Source of the DNA: a virus
Taxonomy: Duplodnaviria > Caudoviricetes
Reading direction: 5' to 3' (one strand)
Virus record (IMG/VR): IMGVR_UViG_3300033074_001909
Location: 42,333 to 106,332 of that record
DNA length: 64,000 nt
Every line of letters starts with the position of its first letter. Position 1 is the stretch's first letter. Shown here one piece after another: positions 22,574-64,000 of the stretch. A model generated the notes under the pieces. The model saw only the letters and a program-made list of their open reading frames with translations. It was not told the DNA's origin and did no database searches. The position numbers were made by a program, and so were the translations under genes.

Positions 22574-22628
22574 GTTGAATGCCCGCGCAGTGGCTTCGTT
22601 GCTGCGAGTACAGGTCGACCCACGCCTT
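22574..22628 (+). CRISPR. Solitary Cas12m-type repeat + 20-nt guide-length segment (plus strand)
   Basis: GTTGAATGCCCGCGCAGTGGCTTCGTTGCTGCGAG at 22574-22608 (stem CGCAGT/GCTGCG kept), then TACAGGTCGACCCACGCCTT. Confidence 0.75.
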
Positions 22629-22808
22629 TGGGCAAGAGCCAAGCCTCTGCGCGGGCACTTCGACCGGTTGGGACGAGTTCTGCGCAGCCCAAATCCGGAA
22701 CGCTCGCAGAAACAAAGCCCCTGCGCGGGCACTTCGACTTGTCGACAACCTGGATCCGGTCGAGCACCGGCTCTCGCAGGAACAAAGCCCCTACGCGGGC
22801 ATCATCGC
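22629..22808 (-). CRISPR. Orphan mini-array: 3 repeats, 2 spacers (34 and 38 nt)
   Basis: Repeats at 22773-22808, 22703-22738 and 22629-22664 are reverse complements of the main-array repeat, e.g. GTCGAAGTGCCCGCGCAGGGGCTTTGTTTCTGCGAG. Confidence 0.9.
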
Positions 22809-23008
22809 TCTAACCTGGGCCGGCCTTCGCTCCGCGGTCGACTGAGTCCCCCGCGAATCGACTTCGGTAGTTTCGCCGCGCCCGCATCACGCAGCCATTC
22901 CGACAGCGATTTACCTTCCTTCGCGGCCGCCGCCAGAAAGGCCGTCCACCAATCCTGCGGCGCCGTGATGTTGCGGCGGATCGTATCGTCTCCATGGGGC
23001 TCTGTCAT
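22802..23008 (-). CDS. Small ribbon-helix-helix regulator
   Basis: 'RRNITAPQDWWTAFLAAAAKEGKSLSEWLRDA'. Confidence 0.65.
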   Translation of the reverse strand: MTEPHGDDTIRRNITAPQDWWTAFLAAAAKEGKSLSEWLRDAGAAKLPKSIRGGLSRPRSEGRPRLER

Positions 23009-23021
23009 GCCGGTGATCCTA

Positions 23022-25559: not shown

Positions 25560-25604
25560 GGCACCTCGTTCCGAGGCCCGGGAGTCACTCCTTGGGCCTT
25601 TTTT
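25560..25604 (+). terminator. Conserved motif + intrinsic terminator ahead of the portal gene
   Basis: GGCACCTCGTTCCGA, then GGCCCGGGAG...CCTTGGGCC and T6. Confidence 0.65.
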
Positions 25605-25614
25605 GTTGGGAAAG

Positions 25615-28600
25615 ATGAGCATGACCACCACGCAACCAGGCGGGCAGCGGATCGGCGGACAGACCTACATGCCCGGGCAGATGCTGCCCGAACGCTATCG
25701 CCGCGTGCTGGAGCCGTCCGACCGGCCCCGCGATCCCGCCGTCCGTGATCCGGATCTGGCTCCCAACTTAGGCCGCCATACCGTCCCGCACATCATCACC
25801 TTCCAGGGGCTGGTCACCTCCCTAGCCCGGGCCTATCGCAATCCAGACGAGGCCTTCCGACACAGCGTCGAAAACGCCCACATGATGCTGACGGACCCGA
25901 CAGTGAGCGGGCCCTTGCACGCGCGGCAGATGATGACGGCGCTGCTCCAGTGGTCGGTGGAAAGCGAGGACGACAAAGATTCACAGCTCAAAGAAGCGGC
26001 CAGCCAACTCCAGAAAGTCCTGGAACGGACGCCGCGGTTCGCTGAACTGCGCCGGTGGCTGCTGGAAGCTATCTGGTATGGTCGCGCGGCCAGCCAGCAC
26101 GCGATCGGATTCCACCGCGATCGCTTCGGCGTGCGACGCAGGGTGATCAAGAAATGGCTGCCGATCTCTGGCGACAAGCTTCTCTTCCGCTACGACGACG
26201 GGAGCGGGGAGTTCGACCCGGATCAGATTGGCGTGCGGGTCAGCCCGGGACTCGGCCGCGAGGATATCATCGCCGGGCGGCGCAAACTCGAGGCCACAAC
26301 CGACGGCATGGGCTACTTCCTGGAGCCCTGGGAGCGTCGGCACTGGGCGGTCCACAAGCACATGATCCGCGACGGGGAATTCGAGGATCCACTCAGCGCA
26401 GGGCAGGTGCATGGCGTCGGCCTGCGGCACTTTCTCTATTGGGTCTGGTATCAGAAGCAGGAGGCTATGGCGCAGCTCGCCGAGGTGCTCGACCGTACTG
26501 GCGCGGGGATCACCATCTACTATTACCCCGTCGGGAATCAGGAAGCGAAAACCCAGGTGGAAAAGGTGGCCCGCGAGCAGGCGCACACCAACGTGCTGGT
26601 GATGCCGTTCGACCCGGCCAGCACAGGCGGCGACCCGTATTCGATTCAACAAATCCCGCCCAACGTAGCCGGCCTGCAGGCCCTCCAGGACATCGTGGAC
26701 GGTTATTTCGGCGACATGATCACGCGGGCCATTCTGGGTCAGACGCTGTCCAGCAAACCCTCCGCAGCGGGCATGAATACGGGCGTCTCGGATCTTCAGA
26801 AAGACTCCCTGTTCCATATCGTGCGATACGACGCGGTCAATCTCCAGGAAACCATCACGCGGGAGATCCTGTTGCCGCTGCGGGACTTCAACCTACCGAA
26901 GTTCCGCAACGTGGATTTCTTCTTCAAAATCTCGACCAAAGTCAGCGCGCCGCAGGAAGAACTGGCCGCCATTTATCAGGCCTGGCAGATGGGCACCAAA
27001 ATCCGCGTCCAGGATCTCTTCCAGAAGCTCGACATGGCCATGCCGGACAAAGACGACAAGGTCGTGTTTAACCCGCAGATTGTGTCAGCCATTCAGCAGG
27101 TCGAGAGCGCCCCGATGGGTGGTCTCGCCCCGCCCGGTGGCGCCGGGCCTCAGCCTCCCGGCGCCACCCCATTTCCACCCGGTGCTGCGGAAGGCACCCC
27201 TACAAGTGAGGGCGGGGGCCAAAATGAACCCCCGCCCATAGATAGAGGGGGTGCCAGCGGCCAACCGGAGCAACTGGATAAGGCCGAAAGCCCCGAGCAG
27301 GAACGCCGGAAGTTGTTTGGCCCGATCCTGTACGGTAAGCGCGAGGAGTATCTGGAGCGGATCAGGGAAGCGGTCGAGAACACCGAGCCCAACCCCACCG
27401 AGGCCCAGCGCGAGGCCGGCAATTATCGCAAGGGCGTGGTGCATTGGCGGGGTTTAGAAGTGGTGATCGAGACGCCCAAGGGTCAGCGGCGGCGCCCGGA
27501 ATGGCCAGCTCTGCGGGCGCATTACGGCTACATCCGCCGGCATTACCACACGGGCGAGCAACGGCTAGTCACCAGCGAGCCGTGCGCCGACGGCGACCAT
27601 CTGGATATCTTCTTGGGGCCACAGCCCGAAAGCGACATCGTGTTCGTGATCGACCAAGTGACGGCCGACGGAAAGTTCGACGAGCACAAGTGTATCCTGG
27701 GCACGACCAACAAGCGGGACGCCCGGGCGCTGTACCTGTCGAACTATGCGGACGGGTGGAAGTGCGGTCCGATCCGGGGCATGACGATCGAGACGTTCAA
27801 GCACTGGCTCGAGCACGGAGACCTGACGAAGCCGGTGGCGCGCCAGAAACTCAGGTACGCGCGGCAATTGTCGCTGTTTGACGATACGTTCTCGCTGGTG
27901 CGCAAGCCGAGATCACTCTTTGACGAAGGATCGCATCCCCGGGCAAAAGAGCATGTGGAGATCCAGGGCAAGGAATACGAAGGCGGGCAATGGATCCCGA
28001 AAGACGCGGCGGTGGAAGCCACGCCAGCGGCCCAAGAGAAAATCGAGGTAGTGGACAAGTCCACGGGCGAAACCGAACCACTTGAGCAAACGCTGAAACC
28101 TGGGGATAATGCCACCGCATCGCCACCGAGTCCCGAGGACGACTCCCATGACCAACCACGATCCGACGCAGAATTCGCACCTGGAGAGCCAGATTCCACC
28201 GGAGGAGATGGAGATCGAGGACGACCTGACGACGGAGAATCTGGCGGCGCAGGCGATTTGGGAGCAAATCCAGTTGGACCGTCAGAAGAACGGATCGTCA
28301 CCTCACGCCAACAGCACACGCGCCCAGCGGATCGATCCCTCGTTCCAGAGCGACTTCGACAACATCTAGACGACCACCAGCAGGAAGGCGTCGCCAAGGC
28401 GATTGCCTCTCTTCGGGATGTTGGTGGCTTCCTTAACTCCGACGGGACTGGCGTCGGTAAGGCGCAGCCGCTCGACGAACCGATTTTGACTCCCACCGGA
28501 TGGAAGCGGATGGGCGATCTGCAAATCGGCGATGAAGTCATTTCAGCCGACGGATTTCCCACCAAAATCAGTGGCGTCTATCCGCAAGGGCACCTGGAAG

Positions 28601-31600
28601 TCTATCGCGTCACATTCAGCGATGGATCGTGGACCGAATGCTGTGCAGAGCATTTATGGCAAACCCACACATGGTCTGATCGCCGGAATTTATCTCGCGG
28701 TTTGCGTCGCCAGGGCAATGTCCGCTCTCTACGTGAAATTGCGAGTAGTTTGGTAGCTAACGGAGGTCAATCCAACCATTCAATTCCCATGACAGCCCCC
28801 GTCGCATTTCAGCCGCGACAAATCTTGCTTGACCCGTATGTTTTGGGCGTGCTGTTGGGTGACGGAGGAATGTCCCGACAAGCATCGTTGACAGTAACCA
28901 GCGTTGACCAGGAAATTCTAGATAGCGTAGGGCATACCTTGCCTACTGGAGTGCGATTGCGACGCATTGGAAATAGTCCTAGCTACTCGATCACCACGGA
29001 TCGTCGCGCAACGAAGTCAGGCAATCCAATGGTGACGGAATTACGCCGTTTGGGACTTCATGGACCAGGAAAAACATCGGATACAAAATTCATCCCGGAA
29101 GACTACAAATTCAATTCCGTTGACGTTCGATTGTCCGTCTTGCAGGGACTAATGGATACAGACGGGACAATTGATAAGCGTGGCACAAGTTGCGTTTACA
29201 CGACAACTTCACGGAAATTGGCTGATGACATTGTGTTTCTTGTGCAGTCGTTGGGGGGAACCGCAAGAATCCAAAGCAAGCAACCAACGTATTGTTACAA
29301 CGGTGATAAACGAGACGGCAAGCAAGCGTACAACGTCACCTTGTGTCTTCCTCCTGAATTCAAGCCATTCCGGTTGTCAAGGAAGTCAGGACGAGTAGTT
29401 CCTAAGTCTAAGTACGCACCTAGGCGATACATCAAGACGGTGGAGCAAATCGGCAGTAAACCTTGTCAGTGCATTGCAGTTGAAAATAAGTCGCATTTGT
29501 ATCTGACACGCGGATTCATTGTCACGCACAATACCCGGCAGCTTCTCGCCACCGCGCAGCACTATCTAGATCAGGGTAAGAAGGTCATTGTCATCGCGCC
29601 TAAGGGCGTGACCAAAGCCGACTGGAAGAAAAAGACCGTCACCGGTTCCTGGCAGAATGACAGCCAGGCCATGGGTGTGCCGATCCACGTGACGCGGGAC
29701 GAGATCGACCCCAAGGCGGTCAATATCTCGAGCTACGAGAATCTCGCGAAGCTCAAACGGCAGGTCGACGACAACACGATCGTGATGTTCGACGAGGCGC
29801 ACTCGCTGAAGAATCGCGATTCCGCCCGCTCCAAGCACGGCGTGGAAATGGCCAATACCGCGGCGGCGGTACTCTTTGCCACGGCCACTCCCGTCGACAA
29901 GGTCGAGCACCTGCACTACCTGGACCGAGCCGGTGCCTTTGGCGGGCGATATTACGGCCAGACCTACGAGCAATTGGGACTGGAGCAAGTCGAGCAGAGC
30001 ATTGGCGGCGGCCAGACGGTCAAGAAGTGGCAGATTCGTCCTGGCGTCAAGGCATCCGAGGTCATGCGTCGCCTGTCGGGGCTATTCACGCGATTGACGG
30101 CCGATGGCCGGATGGTCAAGCGTGAAATCAGCATGAAGGACGTGCCGGTATCGGTACGGCAGGTGAAACTGCCTCCCGAGGCCCACGAAGTCCTGGATCG
30201 CATTGAGGAGGAACTGACTGGCACCTCGGCCAATGAGGGCCTGGAACGAGCTCGCATCCTGATGCACCAGCGGCGACAGCAGGAACCGTATAAAGTCGCC
30301 CCCGCAGTCGACGAAGCGCTGCAGGCGCTCGACGCGGGCCGGCAGGTGGTGATTTTCGCGTCACGGGTCAATGAATCGCAGGTTGGCGGAGAGGATGACG
30401 ACGACGAAAACGCCATCAAGTCCGAAGGAACCATGAAACTCCTGCGGGAAGAGCTCGAGCGGCGTGGCATCAAGCCGGCCGACATCGCGGAGATTCACGG
30501 CGGGGTCTCCAAGACGAAGATTCCGAAAGAAATGGACCGCTTCCAAGCTGGTCAGGCTCGCGTCGTGATCGCCACGGTGGAGAGTGGCGGCACGGGCATT
30601 AACCTGGACGACACGCGAGGAGACCGGCCGCGGACGCTGATCATGATGACGGCGCCATTTTCGGCGGTGGAAAACGTCCAGGCGGCTGGCCGAGTGTGGC
30701 GGCTCAAGACGAAGAGCATTCCCGAGATCAAGTATCTGTTCGGGGATACGGAAGTAGACGATTGGAATTCGGCGCTGATCAGCAAGAAGATGCGGACGCT
30801 GGGCGCGTCGGTAAGCGGCCAGATTGGCAAACTCGACGTGAACAATCTGAACGAGTCGGACGCGATCGATTTCGAGTCCGAAGAGCCGTACGAGTGGCAA
30901 TATCCCGGGGAGGGTGAACCGCCCTCGGCGTCGTTCACTAAACTGGATAGCGGCGAGTGGGGAATGCGAGTGGATGGCCGGGTGCGACCGGGCGAAACGG
31001 TCGAGATCGCGAAGCGGGACGGATCGAAAACGCGGCGGGTAGTCGGGAAGATCGTCAAGGCGGGCGCCGGATTCACGATCGCGACGTTGAGCGATGCGGC
31101 GCCAGCCCGCGAGCAATTGCCGCCGCCTCCACCACCGCCGCCGTCGCCGCCTCCCCCCAAAGCGCCCACGGCGAAGCCCAGTCATCCGTTCGAGGCACTG
31201 GCGGCGTGGTCGCAGCCGAAAAAGGTGAACACGGCGCAAGGGCCACGGATGGTGCGCAGCGCGCGCCCGACGGACAAATTCTGGAAAGAGTGGGGCAAGG
31301 ACAAGGAGCGATTGAAGCGTCAGGGGATCAGCGTCTCGAAGTACCAAGGAGAATGGCAGATTTCCTGGTGGCAGGAGGCACCTGATCGCAACGCGAAACG
31401 CTACGCCAAGGACATCCTGCCCGGCGGACTCGCCGACGACGCGCCACCGGTGGATGCCGCAGCCTTAGCCCGCGGCATCGCCATCGAGATGGAGCACACA
31501 GACGATCCGGCGATCGCCAAGGAAATCGCGGCCGACCATCTGGCGGAATTCCCGGACTACTACGACGCCTTGGAACAAATGGAAGCGTCGCTCCGGTCGC

Positions 31601-32058
31601 GTGCGTCGAAACTGGGAGATCGCCTGCGCTACGCCAAGGACTTAGCAGACCTGTCGGCCGAACCGCTCACCTACGCCTGCGCCTGCCGGCAGCGGTACGC
31701 GAAGGGTGACGAGTCGAGTCACGATCACGAACTGGGGCATGTAAGCGACCTGGAATTCGGGCAGGTGAGCGAGACGCCGGCATGGCGTGAGGCGTGGCAG
31801 CAAGAACTCGCCAGCGGCGAACTGAACGAGGAATCCAGCGAGAATCCAGCCGAGGGGCTGGCCGAGTATGTGGCGCTGGTGCTGCAGTCCCCGAAGCAGG
31901 CTCGCGACGAGTACCCGGTTTGCTGGGAATCGCTCGAGATGGCCGGCATGATCGAAGACGTGGCAAGCGACGGTCCAGCCCGTTATGCTTACGACGAAAG
32001 CCAGCACCCTCGTGACGATGATGGCATGGTTCAAGAATACTCCAAATTAACAGGTTGA
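25615..32058 (+). CDS. Portal (DUF935/Mu gp29-like) fused to polyvalent-protein domains: inorganic PPase-like, Strawberry-notch-like SF2 helicase with intein, DUF5661-like
   Basis: Portal 'LEAIWYG', 'ILGQTL'; PPase-like 'GNYRKG..IETPKG..HYGYI..DGDHLD..FDEHK'; helicase 'DGTGVGK|TRQ', 'DEAH', 'TATP', 'QAAGRVWR'; 'EMEHTDD..AKEIAADHL.E.PDYY'. Confidence 0.8.
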   Translation: MSMTTTQPGGQRIGGQTYMPGQMLPERYRRVLEPSDRPRDPAVRDPDLAPNLGRHTVPHIITFQGLVTSLARAYRNPDEAFRHSVENAHMMLTDPTVSGPLHARQMMTALLQWSVESEDDKDSQLKEAASQLQKVLERTPRFAELRRWLLEAIWYGRAASQHAIGFHRDRFGVRRRVIKKWLPISGDKLLFRYDDGSGEFDPDQIGVRVSPGLGREDIIAGRRKLEATTDGMGYFLEPWERRHWAVHKHMIRDGEFEDPLSAGQVHGVGLRHFLYWVWYQKQEAMAQLAEVLDRTGAGITIYYYPVGNQEAKTQVEKVAREQAHTNVLVMPFDPASTGGDPYSIQQIPPNVAGLQALQDIVDGYFGDMITRAILGQTLSSKPSAAGMNTGVSDLQKDSLFHIVRYDAVNLQETITREILLPLRDFNLPKFRNVDFFFKISTKVSAPQEELAAIYQAWQMGTKIRVQDLFQKLDMAMPDKDDKVVFNPQIVSAIQQVESAPMGGLAPPGGAGPQPPGATPFPPGAAEGTPTSEGGGQNEPPPIDRGGASGQPEQLDKAESPEQERRKLFGPILYGKREEYLERIREAVENTEPNPTEAQREAGNYRKGVVHWRGLEVVIETPKGQRRRPEWPALRAHYGYIRRHYHTGEQRLVTSEPCADGDHLDIFLGPQPESDIVFVIDQVTADGKFDEHKCILGTTNKRDARALYLSNYADGWKCGPIRGMTIETFKHWLEHGDLTKPVARQKLRYARQLSLFDDTFSLVRKPRSLFDEGSHPRAKEHVEIQGKEYEGGQWIPKDAAVEATPAAQEKIEVVDKSTGETEPLEQTLKPGDNATASPPSPEDDSHDQPRSDAEFAPGEPDSTGGDGDRGRPDDGESGGAGDLGANPVGPSEERIVTSRQQHTRPADRSLVPERLRQHLDDHQQEGVAKAIASLRDVGGFLNSDGTGVGKAQPLDEPILTPTGWKRMGDLQIGDEVISADGFPTKISGVYPQGHLEVYRVTFSDGSWTECCAEHLWQTHTWSDRRNLSRGLRRQGNVRSLREIASSLVANGGQSNHSIPMTAPVAFQPRQILLDPYVLGVLLGDGGMSRQASLTVTSVDQEILDSVGHTLPTGVRLRRIGNSPSYSITTDRRATKSGNPMVTELRRLGLHGPGKTSDTKFIPEDYKFNSVDVRLSVLQGLMDTDGTIDKRGTSCVYTTTSRKLADDIVFLVQSLGGTARIQSKQPTYCYNGDKRDGKQAYNVTLCLPPEFKPFRLSRKSGRVVPKSKYAPRRYIKTVEQIGSKPCQCIAVENKSHLYLTRGFIVTHNTRQLLATAQHYLDQGKKVIVIAPKGVTKADWKKKTVTGSWQNDSQAMGVPIHVTRDEIDPKAVNISSYENLAKLKRQVDDNTIVMFDEAHSLKNRDSARSKHGVEMANTAAAVLFATATPVDKVEHLHYLDRAGAFGGRYYGQTYEQLGLEQVEQSIGGGQTVKKWQIRPGVKASEVMRRLSGLFTRLTADGRMVKREISMKDVPVSVRQVKLPPEAHEVLDRIEEELTGTSANEGLERARILMHQRRQQEPYKVAPAVDEALQALDAGRQVVIFASRVNESQVGGEDDDDENAIKSEGTMKLLREELERRGIKPADIAEIHGGVSKTKIPKEMDRFQAGQARVVIATVESGGTGINLDDTRGDRPRTLIMMTAPFSAVENVQAAGRVWRLKTKSIPEIKYLFGDTEVDDWNSALISKKMRTLGASVSGQIGKLDVNNLNESDAIDFESEEPYEWQYPGEGEPPSASFTKLDSGEWGMRVDGRVRPGETVEIAKRDGSKTRRVVGKIVKAGAGFTIATLSDAAPAREQLPPPPPPPPSPPPPKAPTAKPSHPFEALAAWSQPKKVNTAQGPRMVRSARPTDKFWKEWGKDKERLKRQGISVSKYQGEWQISWWQEAPDRNAKRYAKDILPGGLADDAPPVDAAALARGIAIEMEHTDDPAIAKEIAADHLAEFPDYYDALEQMEASLRSRASKLGDRLRYAKDLADLSAEPLTYACACRQRYAKGDESSHDHELGHVSDLEFGQVSETPAWREAWQQELASGELNEESSENPAEGLAEYVALVLQSPKQARDEYPVCWESLEMAGMIEDVASDGPARYAYDESQHPRDDDGMVQEYSKLTG
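27209..27235. repeat. 27-bp palindrome, copy 2
   Basis: AGGGCGGGGGCCAAAATGAACCCCCGC. Confidence 0.8.
28462..29532 (+). mobile_element. Class-3-type intein (357 aa) with LAGLIDADG endonuclease in the helicase P-loop
   Basis: Starts with Ala (AQPLDEPILTPTGW); 'EHLW', 'CQCIAV', 'VTHN|T' give the Trp-Cys-Thr signature; 'LGVLLGDG', 'LQGLMDTDG'. Confidence 0.9.
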
Positions 32059-50576: not shown

Positions 50577-50590
50577 GGCACGGTTGACCC

Positions 50591-50791: not shown

Positions 50792-50801
50792 TTTTAGCTG
50801 C

Positions 50802-52511: not shown

Positions 52512-52565
52512 AAGGAATGACCACCGCCGTGAGGCGGAGTTAGTCCCCACAACCGACGTTTTCAC

Positions 52566-52625
52566 GGCACTCTGACATAGAGCCCGGCGCATTCCCACCA
52601 CGGGGGTGTTAGCCGGGCTTTTTTT
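52566..52625 (+). terminator. Conserved motif + intrinsic terminator ahead of the capsid genes
   Basis: GGCACTCTGACATAGA, then GCCCGGC...GCCGGGC and T7. Confidence 0.65.
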
Positions 52626-52653
52626 GTTGGACCAAGCAAGAGGAGTAAGGCAC

Positions 52654-53043: not shown

Positions 53044-53114
53044 GTCGCACAGCGTTGTGTGCCCTTCGGTGTAACGGGGCACGAAGTGTTCACAACCATA
53101 ACGGAGTATGAGAC

Positions 53115-54155: not shown

Positions 54156-54178
54156 CTCGGGTAAGGGGGAGTGGTCCC

Positions 54179-54688: not shown

Positions 54689-54701
54689 GGGAGTGTAAAC
54701 C

Positions 54702-55178
54702 GTGCCGCTATTGCATCGTGTCGCCGGCCCCGTGATCGTCACCTACAACAGCGTCCAGCTCGGCTATTCGACGGATGGCGTCAACATCCGCATCGAGCCG
54801 CGGTACGTCGATATCTTCTCCGACGACTACGGTGGCCGCGGCGGCGCGCCGGCCGATTCGCAGCTTTTGGGGGCCATCGCCTACGTCCAGGCCGACCTGC
54901 CCAAGTACGATCAGACAGAAGCCCACAAACTGACGGCCTTCGAGAAGTCGGGCGTGGCGGGCGTCTTGCCGCAACTCGGCACGCTCATCCGGCAGGAAAC
55001 CGAGTACGCGGTGTTATTGCTCGACGGCAAGAACGAGGACTGGACGTTCCCCGTGGCGTTCATCCGCCAGCCGATCGAAGTGAATAAGGGCACCAAGTTC
55101 TCGACGCTGGTGCTGGGCTTCGAGTGCTGGATCAGCGACGCTTCGGCGCGGCAGTTGTTCACGCATGCGGTTCCGTAA
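54702..55178 (+). CDS. Putative tail tube protein
   Basis: 'LGYSTDGVNI' motif; position. Confidence 0.55.
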   Translation: MPLLHRVAGPVIVTYNSVQLGYSTDGVNIRIEPRYVDIFSDDYGGRGGAPADSQLLGAIAYVQADLPKYDQTEAHKLTAFEKSGVAGVLPQLGTLIRQETEYAVLLLDGKNEDWTFPVAFIRQPIEVNKGTKFSTLVLGFECWISDASARQLFTHAVP

Positions 55179-55193
55179 CGGAAGGAATGATCC

Positions 55194-55505
55194 ATGGCGT
55201 ACGTGATGCACGAGGATTTGACCTGCCTGGCCCAAGCGGGCGGTTTCAACGCCGGTCATTTCCAGATCGAGCGGTACGAGTTTCTATTCGAGGGGCCGGA
55301 AAAGGCCCTCAAGCAGTCGGTCCGGTCCGCCGTCCGCGAAGCAATGGAAGCTCGCGAGAAGCGGGGCGTCCAGGGCGGCCGGCTGCATGTCGAGCTCGAT
55401 TCCGAGCGACCGGGCGCGGGGCGGGTGGTCGACCATGTCCCTCGCTGGAGCACGCCAGACGCCAAGGTCCATAAACTCGCTGGCGAGGAAAAGGCGGGTA
55501 AGTAA
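55194..55505 (+). CDS. Hypothetical protein
   Basis: RBS AAGGA; operon position. Confidence 0.5.
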   Translation: MAYVMHEDLTCLAQAGGFNAGHFQIERYEFLFEGPEKALKQSVRSAVREAMEAREKRGVQGGRLHVELDSERPGAGRVVDHVPRWSTPDAKVHKLAGEEKAGK

Positions 55506-55507
55506 TC

Positions 55508-56106
55508 GTGTTTTCGTGGCTGTGGCGACGGCGAGATATTTTCCGCTACTGGGACGGGCGCCGGGAGCGGGCCATCGATCCACTCGTGGCCTGGGCCCGC
55601 ATGTGGGAGGATCCCCAGTGCGATCCCCAGCGAGACTTCGGGCCAGCTACCGGCATGTCGGGCGAAGGGCTGCCGGTGGATTTCGATCCTGCGGCGCGGG
55701 ACCGCGTGCTGGCCATGGCGCGGCGGATGTTCGACGTGCAGGAGTTCAGCGAGTCGACGCCCGGACTGACGATCGACGAAACGTTCTCGCTCTTGTGGAC
55801 GTTCATCGGCTTTATGAACGCCATCAAAAAAAAACGCGCTCCCTTGCCGACGATGTCGCCACCTACACCATCGCCTACCTCGGAAGGCTCGACCACGAGA
55901 CCCGCGTCGGACTCCACCTCCACCGGGACCGAGTCGACAAACGGCGAGCCCTCGTCGTCCTCGAAGCGCTCTATTCGGCTCTGAGTCCGGTGCCCAGCAA
56001 GGCCCTGTTTGAGGCTGCGGCGCCGTCCGACGATGAGGGATCCGCCCGCTACGCCCTCGAACAGGCGCGTCATCAGCGCGACATGATGTTTACGGGGAGG
56101 CCCTGA
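55508..56106 (+). CDS. Tail assembly chaperone pair with -1 frameshift (0-frame ends 55984; shifted product ends 56106)
   Basis: A9 run at 55826-55834; -1 frame open to 56106, abutting the next gene. Confidence 0.7.
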
Positions 56107-58082
56107 TGGCGAAGAACCGGCCCCCCCGTGTCGTGCAGTTCGTGACGTCGCAGGGCAGCGTCTACGACGTCGACGAACAAGGCCGCACGACGCGCACCAA
56201 GTCGCCGCATGCCGGCCACGACCGCGATGACGTGGGACGCAAGGAGCGGTCCGATCAGACGTACTTCGTCTCGCAGGACGATGCCCAGCGGGTCGGCATG
56301 CACAACTCGCTGAACCGCGAGGCCCGCCCCCGCTTGCTCGTCCGCGGGAACGAATTGCTGCTGGTCTCCTGGAATGCCAAAGAGGGCCGCTGGGGCACGC
56401 ACGGGTCGCCAATTCCCCTGTCGCAGGTGCCGGAAGTCGGCCGCGCGCCGCTCGAGTTATGGAACGTCGCCCCCTACGTACTGGCGCCCAACGGCATTGA
56501 CGGACTTTCTCCGAGCAAAAGCCATCCGGGCAGTCCGATCACGGAGCTCCGCCACGCGCGCGAATCGCAGGTAGCGCCCCCGCTGCCGACACCGCCGTCG
56601 GATGTGCCCACCGCGCCGGTCGCCACGCCGCCCATGAGCGAAGGACGGCCGCCGATCGAGCCGCCGGTGACGCCGCCGCCCAGTTCCCGTCCGCCCCGCA
56701 GCGACGCCCGGCCCCCCGCCTGGGGTGACCTGGCACCCTTGCTGGCCAATCTGCTGCAACCGAGCGCCACGCCGTTCGCGGGCCAGTCGGAACCGCTCAA
56801 TCTGCGGTCGATCCTGACGACGGTGGCCGGCCAGTCGGCAGCGCCGCCCACGCGTCCCCGTACGGGCCTGGACAGCGTCCAGACAATGCTCGACGTGGCC
56901 GGGGTGTTTGATCCGACGCCGCTGGTGGATTCGATCAACGCCGCGATTTCGCTGGGTCGCGCGGCACGCAGCCGCAATCCAATCGAGCGGCGCGAGCACT
57001 TTACGGATGCCGCCATCAGTGCCGTGGCGGGCGGGCTGCCGTACTGGGGCGATAGCGCCAAGATTCCGCGGTTCTTGCGGGCCGCGAGCCACTCGGCCGG
57101 CCAGGCGGCCCGGGATTTCAAGACCAGTCGCTTGGCAACGCCCGTGAGTGGCAGCCCGCCGCTGCCGCCCCGTGGGGGCGGCACTCCGCCGCCCGTACCA
57201 CCACCGCCCCCGGGCTCACCGGGCGTCCCACCGCCGCCCGGCGGTGGCTTGCCACCCATGCCACCACCTGGCAGCGTACCACCGGGAGCGCCGCTGCCGC
57301 CCCCGGGTGGCACTCCGCCACCGGGATCACCGCCACCGCCCCCGGGCTCACCGGGAGGCCCACCGCCGGGTGGGTTTGGTGGCGGAGGGGGATGGCGAGC
57401 GGCAGCGCCGTTTCTGATCGGGATGGCGGCGGGCGGACTGGCGGGGATGCTGCCCGGGACGCCTCCGCAGCTACCGCCTCGCCGCTATGATTTGCCGGAC
57501 CTCGTGACGAATCCCGCGCAGCGCGGCATCGCGCACGACATGGGACGTATGGCCCGCCGGCAATTGCTGGGCTTCGGGGGCGTGCTGGCCAATCCCATTA
57601 ACCCGCTGGCCTGGGGTAATCTGGCCAAAGCCACTTTCGATAACATCCGCGAGTTACCGGCGGCCTTGTTGAATTGGGCGGAGGCCCTTAAGAGTTCACA
57701 AGAGCGGTTGCGGATGTTCAATGGTCAGTTGGCCAATACCTTCATGGAGTCGGAATGGCGCGAGATGATGCGCGACTTCCGCTCCGCAGGCCGCACGGCC
57801 GGCACGACCACGAATCTCGTGAGGGCGCTGGATGAGTTCAAAGACGACCTGCAGCCGATGAAGGACGCGCTGACCAACCTGACCAATGCGCTAGTAACGG
57901 CTGGCGTGGAAGGCGCAAACGTCGTGTACAACCTGGCCATGATGGCAACGAGCCTCGACCAAGTGGTGGAGATTGCGAATATCCTGCTCGGAAAATACGA
58001 CAGCAGCGAGAAGCCGCCCGCGCTGGAAATGTGGGAGAGCATCAAGGACCGGCCGCCCGGAGGGAGGCGCCCCCGCACATGA
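56106..58082 (+). CDS. Protein at tape-measure position: Pro-rich, with PT-TG-like segment and helical C-terminus
   Basis: Follows the chaperone; 'LDVAGVFDPTPLVDSINAAISL..DAAISAV..LPYWGD'. Confidence 0.5.
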   Translation: MAKNRPPRVVQFVTSQGSVYDVDEQGRTTRTKSPHAGHDRDDVGRKERSDQTYFVSQDDAQRVGMHNSLNREARPRLLVRGNELLLVSWNAKEGRWGTHGSPIPLSQVPEVGRAPLELWNVAPYVLAPNGIDGLSPSKSHPGSPITELRHARESQVAPPLPTPPSDVPTAPVATPPMSEGRPPIEPPVTPPPSSRPPRSDARPPAWGDLAPLLANLLQPSATPFAGQSEPLNLRSILTTVAGQSAAPPTRPRTGLDSVQTMLDVAGVFDPTPLVDSINAAISLGRAARSRNPIERREHFTDAAISAVAGGLPYWGDSAKIPRFLRAASHSAGQAARDFKTSRLATPVSGSPPLPPRGGGTPPPVPPPPPGSPGVPPPPGGGLPPMPPPGSVPPGAPLPPPGGTPPPGSPPPPPGSPGGPPPGGFGGGGGWRAAAPFLIGMAAGGLAGMLPGTPPQLPPRRYDLPDLVTNPAQRGIAHDMGRMARRQLLGFGGVLANPINPLAWGNLAKATFDNIRELPAALLNWAEALKSSQERLRMFNGQLANTFMESEWREMMRDFRSAGRTAGTTTNLVRALDEFKDDLQPMKDALTNLTNALVTAGVEGANVVYNLAMMATSLDQVVEIANILLGKYDSSEKPPALEMWESIKDRPPGGRRPRT

Positions 58083-59827
58083 CCGCGACCAATATCGTGT
58101 ACAACGGCGTGCCCATCGCCAACGTGCTCACCGAGGGCATTGACCACCAAGTCGTGTTCGACTCGAGCAACGTCAATCCGATCGCCGTACGCGTGACGGT
58201 GTCGGGCACTGGTTTGATTCACCGGGTGTCGGCCGGCATTCCCAGGACCATCGGTGTCAGCGCGGGCCCCGACCTAGCGGGTGGATTTAATGTGCTGATT
58301 GACGACTTGATGCAGCCGGGTCGCGCCTTTGCGATGTATCTGGGCGACACCGCGCTCTTTGATGTCGTGCCGGGGCATGTCCGTCCGGGCCTGTCCAATC
58401 CCAATGCAGGCGACGGGCTGCCGATCCGGCGCACTGACGTGAACCACGGGCCGATTCCGAGCATTCACGTACTGGAGACCATCAGCGGCAACACGATGAA
58501 AATCCAGTTCCGCATCGTGATGCACCTGCCTTACACCGATCGCGATGGCACCAAACTGGGCGGCGCCGTGTCCTTCCGCTGGTGGATCGCAGAGGATATC
58601 GATTACCGGGATGCGACCACCACGCGCACCTATCACGGCACGCTGCGCGTGCGGCACCTGGGTCACAACGTCCTGACGGAGATTCGCAATAACTTCGTGT
58701 TCCCGCCGCTGCTGTCCGGTTTTCAACGCCAGCGGATTTCGCTCAATCAGAAGCCCAACGGCCTGGAACTGGATTTCACGGTCACGGACAAAGAGGTATG
58801 GGCCGCGGCGCCGTCGCCAGCCACGAGGTGGGAGGGTTACCAAACCCAATTCACCGCCGAAAAACTGCTGCTGGTGTCCGAGGTGGGTGTCACGGTGTGG
58901 GGCGACAAAAAGACGCCCAAGAATGACCTGCTGGTGCTGTGTCGCAAGATTCTGGACACCAAACTGCATCGGCTGGATATGAGCGCCCAGGGCCAGACGT
59001 TCCTGCGGTCGCTGCGTATCCGGGATTCGTTCACCGACAACAAGATCGAGGCTTCTGCGTCGGTCAACATGATCCCCTCCAACAAGATTATCTGGAATCT
59101 GGAGAAGGGAAATTTCGGCCAGCCGCTCAATGTGGGTTTTCCGTCGTCGCCCAGCGAGTTTCCGACATACAACAAGGAACTCGCACGCACGGTCTCGCCA
59201 ACGGCGTGCATCAAAGGGCTGTTTTTGGCGGCGTTACAAGATCCCTTGCACGTGACAGACGCGTTCCGCTATCCCGAGGTGGTTGAGGACGCCAGGCAGG
59301 TTGTGTTTGGCGCATTGGACTGCGGCGAATCGGCACCAACCGAGCCAGAGATTCCCGCCGAAACAGACCGCAAAGTCAGTTCCGAGCATCTCGATTCGGC
59401 CTACACGGTGTATTGTCTCACCAGCGAGACCGACAAGAACTGGGGCACCATCGCCCTGCCGGTAGGCAAGTCCAGCAGCGGCCAGGATACGGCCGCCATC
59501 CTGAAACTGCATCAGCCGACCGCCAACCTGCGGGTGCGGCTGGAAGCCGAGCGGATCAATCAGTGGCCGACGCTGCCCAGTCCGCAGGAGTATTCCAAGT
59601 TGGGCTGCCAGTTCACGCCGCTGCGGACGCCGATCACGGGCTCCTCGACGCTGAGCGGCGATTACCGCAAGACGCTGTATCACGTATCGGCCGAATTGCA
59701 TTTCGGCCAGAACAAGGAAGCCACGGGTGGTATTCCGGCTGGGCTCTTACCGTATCGGGTGGCTGGCCAGGACAATGTATACGTGATCCCGTCGTCGGTG
59801 TTCAGCGACAAGATTCTGTTTGCGTAG
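58079..59827 (+). CDS. Putative tail/baseplate protein
   Basis: ATGA coupling with upstream gene; beta-rich; position. Confidence 0.5.
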   Translation: MTATNIVYNGVPIANVLTEGIDHQVVFDSSNVNPIAVRVTVSGTGLIHRVSAGIPRTIGVSAGPDLAGGFNVLIDDLMQPGRAFAMYLGDTALFDVVPGHVRPGLSNPNAGDGLPIRRTDVNHGPIPSIHVLETISGNTMKIQFRIVMHLPYTDRDGTKLGGAVSFRWWIAEDIDYRDATTTRTYHGTLRVRHLGHNVLTEIRNNFVFPPLLSGFQRQRISLNQKPNGLELDFTVTDKEVWAAAPSPATRWEGYQTQFTAEKLLLVSEVGVTVWGDKKTPKNDLLVLCRKILDTKLHRLDMSAQGQTFLRSLRIRDSFTDNKIEASASVNMIPSNKIIWNLEKGNFGQPLNVGFPSSPSEFPTYNKELARTVSPTACIKGLFLAALQDPLHVTDAFRYPEVVEDARQVVFGALDCGESAPTEPEIPAETDRKVSSEHLDSAYTVYCLTSETDKNWGTIALPVGKSSSGQDTAAILKLHQPTANLRVRLEAERINQWPTLPSPQEYSKLGCQFTPLRTPITGSSTLSGDYRKTLYHVSAELHFGQNKEATGGIPAGLLPYRVAGQDNVYVIPSSVFSDKILFA

Positions 59828-59847
59828 TCGCTGCGGCACAGCCTGCA

Positions 59848-59955
59848 CTCGCAGAAATCAAGCCTCTGCGCGGGCACTTCAACGATCCCGACCGGGAATA
59901 CGTGATGTCCGGACTTGACCTCGCAGACACAACGCCTCTGCGCTGGCATTCGCGC
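59848..59955 (-). CRISPR. Orphan mini-array: 2 repeats, 1 spacer (36 nt)
   Basis: Repeats at 59920-59955 (GCGCGAATGCCAGCGCAGAGGCGTTGTGTCTGCGAG) and 59848-59883 (GTTGAAGTGCCCGCGCAGAGGCTTGATTTCTGCGAG). Confidence 0.9.
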
Positions 59956-60148
59956 TATCTTCATAGTCCGCCACTACGCTCGTCAACACTGGACGGGAGT
60001 TCAGTAGATAGCGTCGGGCCAGCGGCCTACGATACCAGTGCCATCGAAGTCCCCTTGCACAGCTCACCACGATGCGAATTTCCCTGCGCCTCGCGCTCGA
60101 ACTTCGGTGGCCATCGTGGTGAGCGTTTTTTTGCGCTAGGGCCCAGTC

Positions 60149-60343
60149 ATGCGCTGGACAATCCGCGATCTATTCTACGTGCTGACGATCACCGCCATGG
60201 CCATCGCCTGGACGCTGGACGCCCGACAGAACTACGGGTCACCGACCGTCGGTAAAGTGTGCGAGGAGTGCGGCAGCGATGGCAACGCCCACACCCTGCG
60301 CTGCCCCGTGATTGCTCGTCTTATTCTTCACTCGGAGAACTGA
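60149..60343 (+). CDS. Small membrane peptide of a Planctomycete-type 'R(F/W)(S/T)IRDL' family
   Basis: MRWTIRDLFYVLTITAMAIAW followed by CxxC. Confidence 0.55.
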   Translation: MRWTIRDLFYVLTITAMAIAWTLDARQNYGSPTVGKVCEECGSDGNAHTLRCPVIARLILHSEN

Positions 60344-60345
60344 TC

Positions 60346-61422
60346 ATGAAACGTCGCGCCTTTACTCTCGTCGAGCTGCTAGTGGTCATCGCCATTATCG
60401 GGGTGCTGGTCAGCTTGCTCTTGCCGGCCGTGCAGGCGGCTCGCGAAGCGGCCCGCCGTATGTCGTGCTCGAATAACCTCAAGCAGATTGGACTAGCCGT
60501 CCATAACTTCGTGTCCGCCCGCGACACCATGCCCCGCTCCGGGGAACACCTCGTGGAAGTGGGCAACGTGACCTACAAGACGCAATGCTTTCACGGCCCG
60601 CTGTTGGTGCTGCTGCCCTACCTGGAGCAGTCCGCGCTGTTCGACAAGTTCGACTTGACGGTGCGCTACAACGAGGGAGCTAACCTGGCCCTGGTGCCGC
60701 TGGGAGCCGGTGGCGCCGCCACGATCAAGGCCTACCAGTGTCCCACCAATCCCGAGCGGTGGATTACGGACAAAGAGGGATTCACGGGCACCGATTACGC
60801 GCCGCTCCCTTACGTGGAAATCAACGCTGCGGCGGCCGCGGCCACCGGCTTGCCGGCTGGCTTGCATCCGGCAGCGCTCACGTCCCACCCGTACCGGCCG
60901 GCATACTACAAGACCTACTCGGGCGCTCATCCCAGCATCAGCCCTAGCAAAGCCTTTCAACTGAAAACGTCGGCCGAGCTCGCCGCGCTGGGCAATTTCA
61001 ACATCTACTTCGGTGGCGCCACGTTCGCGGACATCACCGACGGATCGAGCAATTCCATCCTGGTGTACGAGGACACCGGCCGCAACGAAAAGATGGACGG
61101 CACAGGCAGCCCGTCGCCAAATAACTACCTGGATCCAGTCGACAATCAGCCCCGCCGGCACTGGCGGTGGGCGGAGCCCGACAGTACGAGCGGCTGTTCC
61201 AAGCAGATCAACAACAACCGCACCCCGCGGGGTGGCCCGCCCACCTGCCCTTGGACGGCACACGATTGTGGCCCCAATAACGAATGGTTTTCCTTCCATC
61301 CAGGTGGCGCGCAAGTCGCCATGGCCGATGGCTCGGTCCGCTTCGCCAGCGAAACCACGGACCTGAAAGTCGTGTTTGCTCTGGGCACCCGCAAAGGCGG
61401 AGAATCGGTGACCCTGGATTAG
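60346..61422 (+). CDS. DUF1559 prepilin-type N-terminal cleavage/methylation protein
   Basis: 'AFTLVELLVVIAIIGVLVSLLLPAVQAAREAARR..C.NNLKQIGLA', 'DGSSN', 'HPGGAQVAMADGSVRF'. Confidence 0.95.
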   Translation: MKRRAFTLVELLVVIAIIGVLVSLLLPAVQAAREAARRMSCSNNLKQIGLAVHNFVSARDTMPRSGEHLVEVGNVTYKTQCFHGPLLVLLPYLEQSALFDKFDLTVRYNEGANLALVPLGAGGAATIKAYQCPTNPERWITDKEGFTGTDYAPLPYVEINAAAAAATGLPAGLHPAALTSHPYRPAYYKTYSGAHPSISPSKAFQLKTSAELAALGNFNIYFGGATFADITDGSSNSILVYEDTGRNEKMDGTGSPSPNNYLDPVDNQPRRHWRWAEPDSTSGCSKQINNNRTPRGGPPTCPWTAHDCGPNNEWFSFHPGGAQVAMADGSVRFASETTDLKVVFALGTRKGGESVTLD

Positions 61423-61424
61423 GA

Positions 61425-61453
61425 TTTACAAGAAGCAATTCATATTGCACAAT
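61425..61453 (+). promoter_or_regulatory. Promoter of the cas12m-like gene with internal palindrome
   Basis: TTTACA-17 nt-CACAAT; GCAAT-TCAT-ATTGC overlaps the spacer; RBS AGGAGG. Confidence 0.55.
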
Positions 61454-61488
61454 GGTCGCTTTCTGTAACCCATTCCAGGAGGAAGGCC

Positions 61489-63507
61489 ATGCCCATCGTC
61501 TACAGTTATCGCGCCAAGGTCCGGGAGCAGGATCGGCCGTTGATTATCGGGCAATTGCGAGCGGCCCATCGCTACCGCAATCGCTTGTGCGAGATCGAAT
61601 TGACGCGTCGTCAGCAGGTCGATGCGGCGTTGCGAGAAGTCTGCCCGCGCCTGCTGGAAGTGGAAGCGGAACTGGCGGCCCTCGACGGCGAATTGACCGC
61701 CGAATACGAGCGGGTCAAGAAGGCCAACGTGCAGGAGCGATCCCGCAAGCGTCCTCCCCAGGAGCAGCAGCAGCGGATCGCGGCCCTCAAGGCGCAACTC
61801 AAGGCCTTGCGAGCGGAACGCAAGACGCTGCGCACGGGTCTGTTCGGCATGTCCGAGCGAGTAGACAAATTGCGCAAGGCCGCTGCGGAATTGCATGGCA
61901 AGCCGGCGGAGACGGTAGCCACGATGCAGGGTCTGCTGTGGGAGGAGGGTTGCGACGGTTTGCGAGCGGCCCTGGCGGCGCGCCTGACAGCCGAGGCCGG
62001 CCAGAAGCGAGCGCAGGACGACGCGATCCGCGAGGAGTTGGCCAAACTTGTCGAACAGGAGAGCAACACGCCCGCCGCGGCGCGCCGCCTGGCGGAGATC
62101 GACACCGCCGCCAAGCAGGCCGCCAAGGACGCGCGACATCAAAGCGGTCTGTACTGGGGAACGTACCTGACGGTGGAGGAGGCGGCCGCGTCTTTCCGCA
62201 CGGGGGCGCCGCCGCGGTTCAAGCGATGGGAAGGACGGGGCCTGCTGGGTGTGCAATTCGTGGGCGGACTGTTGGTGGAAGATGCGTTGCGGGGTGCCAC
62301 CAAGTTTACCATCCGGGATGGCGCCAAGCCGAAGTGGCGCGAACTGCAAATGCGGATCGGCCAGCAAGAGGACGAATGTGCCACGCTGGATGTGATCTAC
62401 GATCGACCCCTGCCGGAGGATGCCACGATCAAGTGGGCCAAGCTGGCCTATCGCAAGGTGGCCAGCCAGGATCACTTCTATATCAATTTCATTCTGGATC
62501 GGCCCGGAGGGTTCCCACGGGATGATCGGGCCACGGAAGGGACGGCAGCGGTCGACATTGGCTGGCGCAGGCTGGACGACGGCAGCATTCGGGTGGCGTA
62601 CTGGATGGGCTCGGACGGCGAGGAAGGCTCGCTGGAGATCCCGGCCGGGCAGGCCCAGCGGCTACCGCGATGCGACACGCTCAATTCGGTGCGGTCGCTG
62701 CTGTTTGACGGCGCGCGGAGCGTACTGGCTCGCTGGCGAAAGATCGAGCAAGAACGCGACTCCGAACCGCCCGAGTGGCTGCGCGGGCAAGCCATGTGGT
62801 GCAAGTTCGAGATCCAAGGGGCGCCTGCCGGTCGTCAGGATCAATTGCGGCGGTGGCTGACCCATTTCCAAGGGCTGTGTGCCGCCTGGAGTGACATTCC
62901 GGCCATGCCGGAATGGCTGCAGACCTTGACCGACCACGCACACGCCTGGAAGTCGCATGGCAAGCTGGCCCAGGTAGTCTACGAGTGGCGCAATCAGCGG
63001 TTTGCGGGCGATGAGCACCTGTACGGGGTGTTTGAGGCGTGGCGGCAGCAGGACAAGCACCTGTGGGAGTGGACCGCGCATAACCGGCAGCGGTACTTAA
63101 ACTGGCGATTGGATTGCTACCGGGTGTTTGCCAGGATGCTGGCTCGGCGGTATCGCACGCTGGTGATCGAGGACGTGGATTGGCGGGCGTTTTCGGTCAG
63201 GCCGACGGCTGATGAAGCGGACGAAATGAAACTGGCCCGTGCCCGCAAGCACGTCACGGCGCCCAGCCTGCTGGAGAATTGCTTGCGGTATGCGTTCGGC
63301 GCGGCTGACACCAAGGACTTGCCAGCCAAGAACATGACGGCCACGTGCGCGGTATGCGGGGAGTTGTGCGGCGAGACCGACCGGTGGAAACTGGTGCTGG
63401 AGTGCTCGCAGTGTCGATCGAGTTTCGATCAGGACCGTAACGCGTGCCGTAACCTGTTGCGAGCGGCGGGGTGCGATGAAAAGTCCGCCAGTCTCTCGCA
63501 AGGCTGA
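61489..63507 (+). CDS. cas12m: Type V CRISPR effector, Cas12m-like (V-M, formerly V-U1)
   Basis: 'QLRAAHRYRNRL', coiled coil, 'GLYWGTY', 'RWEGRGLLGVQ', 'DRPLPEDATI', RuvC 'AVDIGWR' (D356), 'VIED' (E561), CxxC..CxxC, 'DQDRNA' (D649); adjacent array. Confidence 0.85.
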   Translation: MPIVYSYRAKVREQDRPLIIGQLRAAHRYRNRLCEIELTRRQQVDAALREVCPRLLEVEAELAALDGELTAEYERVKKANVQERSRKRPPQEQQQRIAALKAQLKALRAERKTLRTGLFGMSERVDKLRKAAAELHGKPAETVATMQGLLWEEGCDGLRAALAARLTAEAGQKRAQDDAIREELAKLVEQESNTPAAARRLAEIDTAAKQAAKDARHQSGLYWGTYLTVEEAAASFRTGAPPRFKRWEGRGLLGVQFVGGLLVEDALRGATKFTIRDGAKPKWRELQMRIGQQEDECATLDVIYDRPLPEDATIKWAKLAYRKVASQDHFYINFILDRPGGFPRDDRATEGTAAVDIGWRRLDDGSIRVAYWMGSDGEEGSLEIPAGQAQRLPRCDTLNSVRSLLFDGARSVLARWRKIEQERDSEPPEWLRGQAMWCKFEIQGAPAGRQDQLRRWLTHFQGLCAAWSDIPAMPEWLQTLTDHAHAWKSHGKLAQVVYEWRNQRFAGDEHLYGVFEAWRQQDKHLWEWTAHNRQRYLNWRLDCYRVFARMLARRYRTLVIEDVDWRAFSVRPTADEADEMKLARARKHVTAPSLLENCLRYAFGAADTKDLPAKNMTATCAVCGELCGETDRWKLVLECSQCRSSFDQDRNACRNLLRAAGCDEKSASLSQG

Positions 63508-63628
63508 GGCGGTAAGTAGTTGCGGCGAGAATAGGGATGACGGCGAGGGGCGGTCGTGAGGCGGCAAGCGACCACCTCTCGCAAAGATCGCGGTGGCGTA
63601 TGTCGTGTCCATGGTTTACGTACGTGCC

Positions 63629-64000
63629 GTTGAAGTGCCAGCGCAGAGGCGTTGTTTCTGCGAGACCGGATAATTACACATCGGTCGAGATCGAGCAGGC
63701 GGGTTGAAGTGCCCGCGCAGAGGCGTTGTTTCTGCGAGGGGTGCCGATTAGCCCATCGCTTGACCGGCCTACGGATGTTGAAGTGCCAGCGCAGAGGCTT
63801 TGTTTCTGCGAGTCGACCGTCTGGGAGGATGAGCCGCGGGGTGCCGTCGTGTTGAAGTGCCCGCGCAGAGGCTTTGTTTCTGCGAGCCTACGAGGACCTA
63901 GAGACGTACGTCGTCTCATCGACGTTGAAGTGCCCGCGCAGAGGCTTTGTTTCTGCGAGCGTTCTGGATTCGAGCAGCTGGGCGGACAGATCTTCGTGGA
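63629..64000 (+). CRISPR. CRISPR array, at least 5 repeats (36 nt) with 37-38-nt spacers, probably continuing past the window edge
   Basis: Repeats at 63629-63664, 63703-63738, 63777-63812, 63851-63886 and 63924-63959; consensus GTTGAAGTGCCCGCGCAGAGGCTTTGTTTCTGCGAG. Confidence 0.97.

Follow-up and report, generated by a model that had tools for sequence, protein, structure and literature searches.

Dispersed guide arrays and handle clusters of a phage-borne Cas12m effector, with a type IV-B cassette in the same genome

The stretch of DNA analysed here, 64,000 nt long and called the window in the following, corresponds to bases 42333–106332 (60%) of a single virus record of 106,332 bp (IMG/VR record IMGVR_UViG_3300033074_001909). 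It encodes Cas12m, the effector of type V-M CRISPR (short palindromic repeats, clustered and regularly interspaced) systems, and at some distance from it a type IV-B operon. Besides the main array next to cas12m, the genome holds 17 units of the same repeat handle at four further loci, and that a phage's own effector is served by such dispersed copies is new. Taken together, it appears rather probable that the phage owns a self-contained type V-M system which mainly silences kin phages and to which the IV-B operon is not linked. Positions refer to the window unless the word genome precedes them.

Cas12m and its repeat units at five loci

The effector gene and the site preceding it are located as follows.

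61489–63507, plus strand: cas12m, type V-M effector of 672 aa (phmmer against the PDB; PADLOC)
61425–61453, plus strand: promoter-like site upstream of cas12m, TTTACA-17-CACAAT (consensus scan only)

In the PDB, phmmer matched the cas12m product to 23vw_A, named 'Cas12m' (1.6e-40), GoCas12m 8pm4 (1e-15) and Cas12m2 8hhl (4.5e-14), the weakest Cas12m chain reaching 3e-4, and the PADLOC Cas12u1 model gave 1.2e-75. According to the alignment the RuvC I–III columns are kept, the catalytic triad is canonical and intact (D-E-D, at D356/E561/D647–649) and a C-terminal CxxC...CxxC zinc ribbon is present; in more distant Cas12m relatives the triad reads H-S-D or H-D-D. Homologues numbered 24 among 5.8 billion clusters and, one 98% variant aside, the closest are at most 35–38% identical (35% for the closest by BLASTP). 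Bigelyte et al. (PMC11013384) tested Cas12m proteins with D-E-D, H-D-D and N-D-D triads, all of which bound DNA dependent on a protospacer adjacent motif (PAM) and none of which cut it. Since all tested orthologues, those with D-E-D included, do not cut, our best guess is that the phage protein likewise would bind PAM-flanked DNA without cutting. In a strain from metagenomic run X3, cas12m diverges by about 5.5% over 61255–62704, the N-terminal two thirds, and by about 1% over 62760–63664, the C-terminal part. This suggests that the recognition lobe of Cas12m either is exchanged as a mosaic between sister phages or changes rapidly among them.

Repeat units were located with a covariance model built from an alignment of all repeat copies and two from a distant relative. 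With it, exactly 30 units were obtained, distributed over five loci, and no other site in the genome exceeded 14 bits.

63629–64000, continuing at genome 1–614, plus strand: main CRISPR array, 13 repeats, five of them in the window
22573–22808: four units, made up of the next two entries
22629–22808, minus strand: mini-array at 22.7 kb, three repeats (22629–22664, 22703–22738, 22773–22808) with spacers of 34 and 38 nt between them, closing a minus-strand gene block at its 3' end
22573–22608, plus strand: inverted handle unit, 45.3 bits in the covariance model, 20 nt from the terminal repeat of the 22.7-kb mini-array
59848–59955, minus strand: mini-array at 59.9 kb, two units, with a handle-only first repeat (59955–59920), a 36-nt spacer and a full repeat (59883–59848), between two plus-strand genes
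genome 15385–15713, plus strand: cluster A, seven compact units (covariance model)
genome 17645–17839, plus strand: cluster B, four compact units (covariance model)

The extra units in the window reach 37–54 bits, with E-values between 2e-5 and 8e-9, compared to 14 bits for the best remaining match in the genome; therefore the extra copies are not due to chance. Much of this had been anticipated by a first-pass annotation, made by a model from the letters of the window. It had described a phage with a Cas12m-like gene, an array adjacent to it from 63629 onward, further copies of the repeat at 22574–22808 and 59848–59955, and no visible cas1, cas2 or cas6. The identity of the effector is borne out by the PDB and PADLOC hidden Markov model matches, the array indeed adjoins cas12m and extends past 64000, and the further copies are genuine CRISPR units on their own strand. 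Furthermore, the whole 106-kb record yielded no family match to Cas1, Cas2, Cas6 (a single model, PF01881) or Csf4/DinG.

The repeat is 36 nt long. Its last 28 nt constitute the handle, a 6-bp stem together with invariant GCC and GGC triplets which could close a pseudoknot. The stem is 97% paired over 26 distinct rows of the alignment, compared to 32–56% in controls in which the pairing was slid. Both sides of the stem are changed in 12 cells as against 3.1 in shuffles, none of 500 shuffles being as high, a count that is not a probability as the rows are related copies. One unit alters both sides of a pseudoknot pair in a compensatory manner. Both the slid controls and the variety of pair types indicate that the fold has been kept: the handle is conserved through compensatory changes. 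With the hairpin 2 nt from the spacer and a handle of 28 nt, the layout is that of a class-2 CRISPR RNA (crRNA) and not the 8-nt tag of class 1. A pattern of the repeat core had no match in 185,579 species genomes, IMG/VR and JGI metagenomes. Hence no host CRISPR with identical repeats was found, and the repeat is that of the array which the phage itself carries. A homologous repeat adjoins a Cas12m relative on the IMG/VR contig L001. This distant relative has the triad H-D-D, and there 11 handle units were found at 11526–12253, of which Tandem Repeats Finder saw only 2.5. One spacing on L001 is 53 nt, so compact units are present there too.

The main array begins 121 nt past the cas12m stop codon and has 13 repeats of 36 nt, the last three degenerate, and 12 spacers of 35–38 nt. 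It crosses the contig junction. The final ~76 nt of the record repeat its first bases, and this overlap contains a unique 36-nt spacer; therefore, the assembly circularises and the array continues into genome 1–614. IMG/VR labels the record as linear and 75% complete. The 106,332-bp genome is probably complete. No duplicate pair occurs among the spacers.

Both mini-arrays show an ordered decay of their repeats. At 22.7 kb the first repeat lacks the 5' eight bases but keeps the handle, and the last one keeps the 5' part but has lost the stem; at 59.9 kb the first repeat is handle-only. This is what one would expect from the sequences if selection acted only on the parts which release two guides at 22.7 kb and one or two at 59.9 kb. 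The 22.7-kb array ends a block of negative GC and AT skew at 22–26 kb, in which minus-strand promoter-like sites are located at 23008–22980 and 25470–25441 and a minus-strand terminator-like site at 24917–24896. The inverted handle and the terminal repeat form a long hairpin on either transcript (minus-strand fold of 22565–22670, −52 kcal/mol, z −3.75), which may end both converging transcripts. For the 59.9-kb array there is only a weak minus-strand promoter candidate of its own, an abutting TTGACG at 59986–59981 that is absent from the promoter-scan list. In sister phages from runs X5 and X8, copies of the 59848 repeat enclose additional and different spacers, 39 and 34 nt long, neither of which matches the phage genome. 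The 59.9-kb mini-array therefore turns over, despite the absence of cas1 and cas2 from the record.

By effector homology, an adjacent array with a stem-pseudoknot handle, the missing adaptation module and the lack of a trans-activating crRNA (tracrRNA; the sole anti-sense repeat copy lies 41 kb from cas12m, at a mini-array end), this is a type V-M system. It shares with the described ones (MmCas12m2, GoCas12m, MsCas12m, PmCas12m; PDB 8hhl, 8pm4, 23vw) a homologous effector, a 36-nt repeat with 3' stem and pseudoknot, the absence of a tracrRNA beside the array and of adaptation genes, and carriage on a mobile element. In contrast, the protein has 672 aa compared to 577–614 aa in the matched solved chains, its identity to relatives is 35–38% or less, and it resides in a lytic-type phage genome with 17 extra handle units at four further loci. 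Type V-M systems occur on plasmids and in some prophages (PMC11656645), and Cas12m with an array in myxophage MV-1 was presented as the first phage case (bioRxiv 10.64898/2026.09.14.751636). MV-1 likewise has a phage-borne D-E-D Cas12m, an adjacent array, no cas1 or cas2 and spacers whose targets were not found, but its host belongs to another phylum and neither dispersed mini-arrays nor handle clusters nor IV-B were reported there.

Spacer targets and possible uses of guides and handles

One spacer of the main array, number 8 (genome 255–289), leads to the phage's own genome.

10005–10039, minus strand: near-protospacer of spacer 8, 31 of 35 positions identical (shuffle maximum 24)
9967–10070, plus strand: promoter-leader-terminator cassette that holds the near-protospacer (TTGACG-16-TAGACT, conserved leader box, hairpin and U-tract)
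5894, 50182 and genome 13238: sister promoter-leader cassettes

The mismatches fall on spacer positions 4, 7, 29 and 35. A second match, 26 of 35, lies at genome 13274, and both sites follow a promoter within a few bases. Of the four cassettes, three combine TTGACG-type promoter hexamers with the conserved leader box and a strong terminator hairpin followed by a U-tract; that at genome 13238 has the box and a weaker promoter, TTGCCT-17-TATATT. The cassette at 9967–10070 folds with −37.6 kcal/mol (z −4.8). The cassettes look like sites of regulated antitermination. Their full spans are 5888–6000, 9961–10075, 50176–50293 and genome 13232–13350, and the three strong ones precede operons. The PAM-distal half of spacer 8 covers the conserved box and the PAM-proximal half the variable stem; within the latter, positions 4 and 7 are those at which the phage's own copy deviates. 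Most simply, a kin phage would be both the source of spacer 8 and its target, through the corresponding cassette, a site well suited to a roadblock for transcription. Spacer 8 of the main array is the only one with matches to promoter-proximal boxes, no such matched box lying at cas12m.

From these observations we favour the following course of events, which as a whole is somewhat better supported than its alternatives combined. Cas12m would be made from its own promoter, for which the site at 61425–61453 is a candidate, and would bind the 28-nt 3' part of the repeat with its 6-bp hairpin and GCC/GGC pseudoknot, releasing guides from the 13-repeat array and from the two separately placed minus-strand mini-arrays. 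By analogy with all tested Cas12m proteins it would then bind PAM-flanked DNA uncut and block transcription. Its main use would be to shut down kin phages co-infecting the same cell, with one guide directed to a conserved box immediately behind a promoter of the phage family and the own copy spared by two seed mismatches. Spacer content varies between strains though cas1 and cas2 are absent. The compact clusters would be kept by selection for the handle fold and would function on RNA or give rise to short, fixed guides, and the IV-B operon would be an independent accessory cassette inserted in the structural operon. The targeting of kin phages and the transcription of each locus are inferred here.

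Several points weigh against such a role. True protospacers were not found in GenBank phages, where matches were those expected by chance (E 0.2–8), and in 401 Planctomycetota genomes spacer matches stayed at chance level, the best one spanning a repeat boundary. The search suggested by the first-pass annotation, of spacers against Planctomycete genomes and viromes for a shared 5' PAM, thus gave no match beyond chance. A leader-box pattern run on IMG/VR hit one unrelated contig without a protospacer. As no true protospacer was found, no PAM could be derived, and CTGC, which flanks the near-match in the own genome, is not a known Cas12m PAM. The targeting of kin phages depends on one of 12 main-array spacers. 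The first-pass annotation had supposed guide cassettes in differently timed transcription units and repression of host, defence or competitor genes; such timing and targets in the host or its defences find no support, as the sole clue to a target leads to kin phages. Spacer turnover without cas1 and cas2 has no explained source of new spacers, and with its canonical D-E-D triad this Cas12m might cut DNA. Finally, metatranscriptome run X20 gave only small contigs (capsid region, cas12m, array end and elsewhere), possibly from DNA carry-over, and none on IV-B; it proves neither transcription nor its absence.

All 11 units of clusters A and B are intergenic, tightly packed and sense to the flanking plus-strand genes. 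Allowing for the 5' eight bases of the repeat, the spacers of cluster A measure 3, 13, 23, 8, 21 and 9 nt, those of cluster B 16, 23 and 12 nt; by our count, 6 of the 9 internal units have 16 nt or less. Mature crRNA of PmCas12m consists of ~33 nt of repeat and ~17 nt of guide (preprint 10.64898/2026.03.26.714355), and therefore a few of the cluster units could serve as guides and most could not. From the end of the last handle to a following start codon the distance is 1 or 16 nt in cluster A and 39 nt in cluster B. Most likely the clusters are binding or processing sites for Cas12m in the phage's own transcripts, or short fixed guides; decoys would rank behind this, and debris behind decoys.

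In an alternative, the system would serve self-regulation: Cas12m would bind or cut the phage's own polycistronic RNAs at the sense-oriented clusters and bind, through partial pairing, shortly downstream of the phage's own promoters, so that handles and spacer 8 would run the gene programme and time its expression. The sense orientation of all 11 compact units between genes with the last ones close before start codons, the retained fold of units whose spacers are mostly too short to guide, and the match of spacer 8 to a box common to four own cassettes would all agree with this. However, the match in the own genome has two PAM-proximal seed mismatches and no known PAM, and the spacers of mini-arrays and clusters, the short ones included, gave no match to the phage genome above shuffle level. 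Apart from pre-crRNA processing, we know of no described activity of Cas12m in regulation at the RNA level. We therefore regard self-regulation as rather unlikely. The same low probability is given to a broader version, in which Cas12m together with the dispersed handles would exert RNA-guided control over the phage itself: handles located in 5' untranslated regions would mark the phage's own messages for binding or cutting by Cas12m, and full guides, directed to the promoter-proximal box common to the phage family, would provide gene timing together with the exclusion of kin. If this were true, trimming 17–18 nt past the handle, as by PmCas12m, would at the seventh unit of cluster A fall on the second candidate start codon of the next gene (genome 15730). 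It would be a possible case of a CRISPR protein acting on a phage's own transcripts.

Virus-borne mini-CRISPR arrays were reportedly described by Medvedeva in 2019. Viral genomes are known to contain scattered lone repeats and arrays with one or two spacers, for which a role in inter-virus conflict was proposed (PMC11656645). These resemble the elements described here, but they copy host repeats and use or block host Cas proteins, whereas the repeats of this phage are those of its own effector. Solitary repeat units of phages that inhibit Cas proteins (PMC11656645) make it conceivable that the compact, nearly spacer-less clusters are RNA anti-CRISPRs, decoys whose useless RNAs would occupy Cas12m proteins belonging to rival phages or to the host. 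The conserved handles with trimmed guides would fit, and kin phages carry the same Cas12m system. Decoys would, however, equally disarm the phage's own Cas12m, several units retain spacers of 21–23 nt, and the 185,579 species representatives contained no host genome with the repeat. This explanation is improbable.

What is new, then, are dispersed mini-arrays and fold-conserved compact handle clusters serving the phage's own effector, a guide that appears aimed at a family-wide promoter-proximal box, and a natural presence/absence pair for IV-B. Cas12m is in use as a compact programmable DNA binder, but little is known of what it naturally does on mobile elements. A phage keeping 17 extra handles under selection for their fold, with a guide to a promoter element of its own family, would provide a concrete and testable case of the RNA-guided silencing of rival phages.

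The type IV-B cassette and its relation to Cas12m

The second system comprises five genes, and its limits are known from sister phages.

46530–47279, plus strand: csf1, Cas8-like large subunit (PADLOC typeIV_Cas8 1.7e-60; TIGR03114 1.2e-12)
47194–47667, plus strand: cas11, small subunit (PADLOC typeIV_Cas11 5e-29)
47603–48544, plus strand: csf2, Cas7 (PADLOC typeIV_Cas7 3.6e-76; PDB 7jhy Csf2 2.7e-4)
48541–49206, plus strand: csf3, Cas5 (PADLOC typeIV_Cas5 1.7e-31)
49200–49931, plus strand: cysH-like gene, 243 aa, phosphoadenosine phosphosulfate (PAPS) reductase fold, motif GISWGKDST (Pfam PF01507 weak, 0.008)
46521–49938, plus strand: extent of the IV-B cassette, an insertion/deletion polymorphism of ~3.4 kb among sister phages (contigs from X5 and X8)

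The cysH-like protein has about 500 homologues, and among the matches listed most carry PF01507. The complete csf1-cas11-csf2-csf3-cysH-like operon had been placed by the first-pass annotation about 11.5 kb upstream of cas12m; the operon is indeed complete and the gap amounts to 11.56 kb. It has a csf operon with a cysH-like gene where DinG would otherwise stand, neither Cas6/Csf5 nor an adjoining array accompanies it, and accordingly it belongs to type IV-B. The nearest repeat unit is 9.9 kb off and of the Cas12m type.

The same annotation had seen the two effectors as coupled, the scattered guide RNAs being possible cargo of the array-less IV-B complex or sequestered by it. That both systems occur on one phage, 11.6 kb apart, and that IV-B has neither an array nor a Cas6 of its own speaks for such a connection, as does a plasmid on which IV-B stands beside an inactivated Cas12b3 and a mini-array (PMC12669027). 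The comparison of strains, made with assembled contigs covering 44001–64000, decides against it. In contigs from X5 and X8, which belong to two other studies, position 46520 is joined to 49939 with ACTC in between, so that precisely csf1 to cysH is gone, and long contigs from these same runs cover cas12m and the arrays. Sister phages without IV-B thus keep cas12m and arrays, that is, the two loci assort independently, which the annotation itself had named as part of what would refute a coupling. Furthermore, in X3 the cassette is present with csf1 identical, csf2 to cysH diverged by ~7.5% and flanks diverged by at most 0.3%. This piecewise divergence identifies the cassette as a mosaic that has been exchanged in pieces.

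The relatives of either system point in the same direction. Fifteen metagenomic IV-B relatives keep the five-gene order and have almost no phage genes in common with this genome. None has a Cas12m gene, apart from a 51-residue weak match upstream of csf1 in L073, which was dismissed for being no more than that. The three that were scanned for repeats yielded no array, and among the six longest loci none showed a handle of the Cas12m type. Conversely, the Cas12m relative on L001 with its 11-unit array has no Csf2 match within the 25.9-kb fragment. The repeat layout, finally, is that of class 2 without an 8-nt 5' tag. A joint use of guide RNAs by both effectors is therefore very improbable, and an RNA pool common to them finds no support in this one phage. 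The best explanation is a separate, independently exchanged accessory cassette that neither depends on nor serves Cas12m RNAs. That the extra repeat copies are non-functional leftovers of recombination between arrays is hardly credible: inverted copies and assembly joints connect the 59.9-kb and main arrays in run X5 and several units are degenerate, but the degeneration is ordered and spares the handle or the 5' part as function requires, compensatory base changes preserve the stem, and the units occur only between genes.

Upstream of the cassette are the gene of a 1706-aa polyvalent-type protein and a 133-aa open reading frame, downstream the promoter cassette at 50182. As IV-B has no promoter cassette of its own, it is probably transcribed by read-through from the structural operon. 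The upstream region 40924–46521, encoding the 1706-aa protein (with a GNAT domain) and the 133-aa frame, persists in phages without the cassette, so IV-B sits at a hot spot next to the polyvalent-type protein.

Type IV-B is already known from mobile elements, phages included. Like the Csf complex of Mycobacterium sp. JS623 (PDB 7jhy), the one found here consists of csf1-cas11-csf2-csf3 and a cysH-like gene without array, Cas6 or DinG on a mobile element; the difference is its position inside a phage structural gene block and its presence or absence among near-identical sister phages. An Actinomyces plasmid (PMC12669027, Extended Data Fig. 7) also unites IV-B, a type V effector and a small array on one mobile element, but there the effector is a RuvC-inactivated Cas12b3 and here a Cas12m predicted not to cut, and the pairing is shown to be dispensable here. 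For IV-B this is a useful negative result, since near-identical phages with and without the cassette show its independence from the neighbouring Cas12m and provide matched genomes for studying IV-B function.

Phage, host and other genes

The identity as a phage is based on two marker genes and on matches of the record to several PHROG families.

18961–21624: T4-type large terminase (TerL)
25603–32058, plus strand: Mu-portal fusion of 2151 aa

A DUF1559/H-X9-DG prepilin-like gene (60259–61422) shares 62% identity with a Gemmataceae protein, and its close relatives all belong to the Planctomycetota; this kinship supports a Planctomycete as host. Searches of IMG/VR with TerL and Cas12m gave no close kin phage. 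The phage or near relatives are present in metagenomes from wastewater, sludge and freshwater, in at least 12 studies.

The 2151-aa protein combines a Mu-type portal, an inorganic pyrophosphatase, a LAGLIDADG intein-like insert, a SNF2/Sno-type helicase and DUF5661. Next to it, in a three-gene minus-strand block, a PurA-like gene (32059–33294, minus strand) matches a PHROG named for the PurZ-type synthetase (2e-60). A reading as PurZ with a diaminopurine (Z) genome was dropped because the protein keeps the catalytic Asp of GDEGKG. Directly after the main array, genome 776–10978 contains four successive genes for proteins of ~830–876 aa which belong to no family, except for a weak tail-protein match in the first. 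About 37 tandem units of 12 nt (36737–37300) lie inside a gene for a 435-aa protein (36606–37913) with a DUF6745 C-terminal part, where they encode a long tract of a four-residue repeat.

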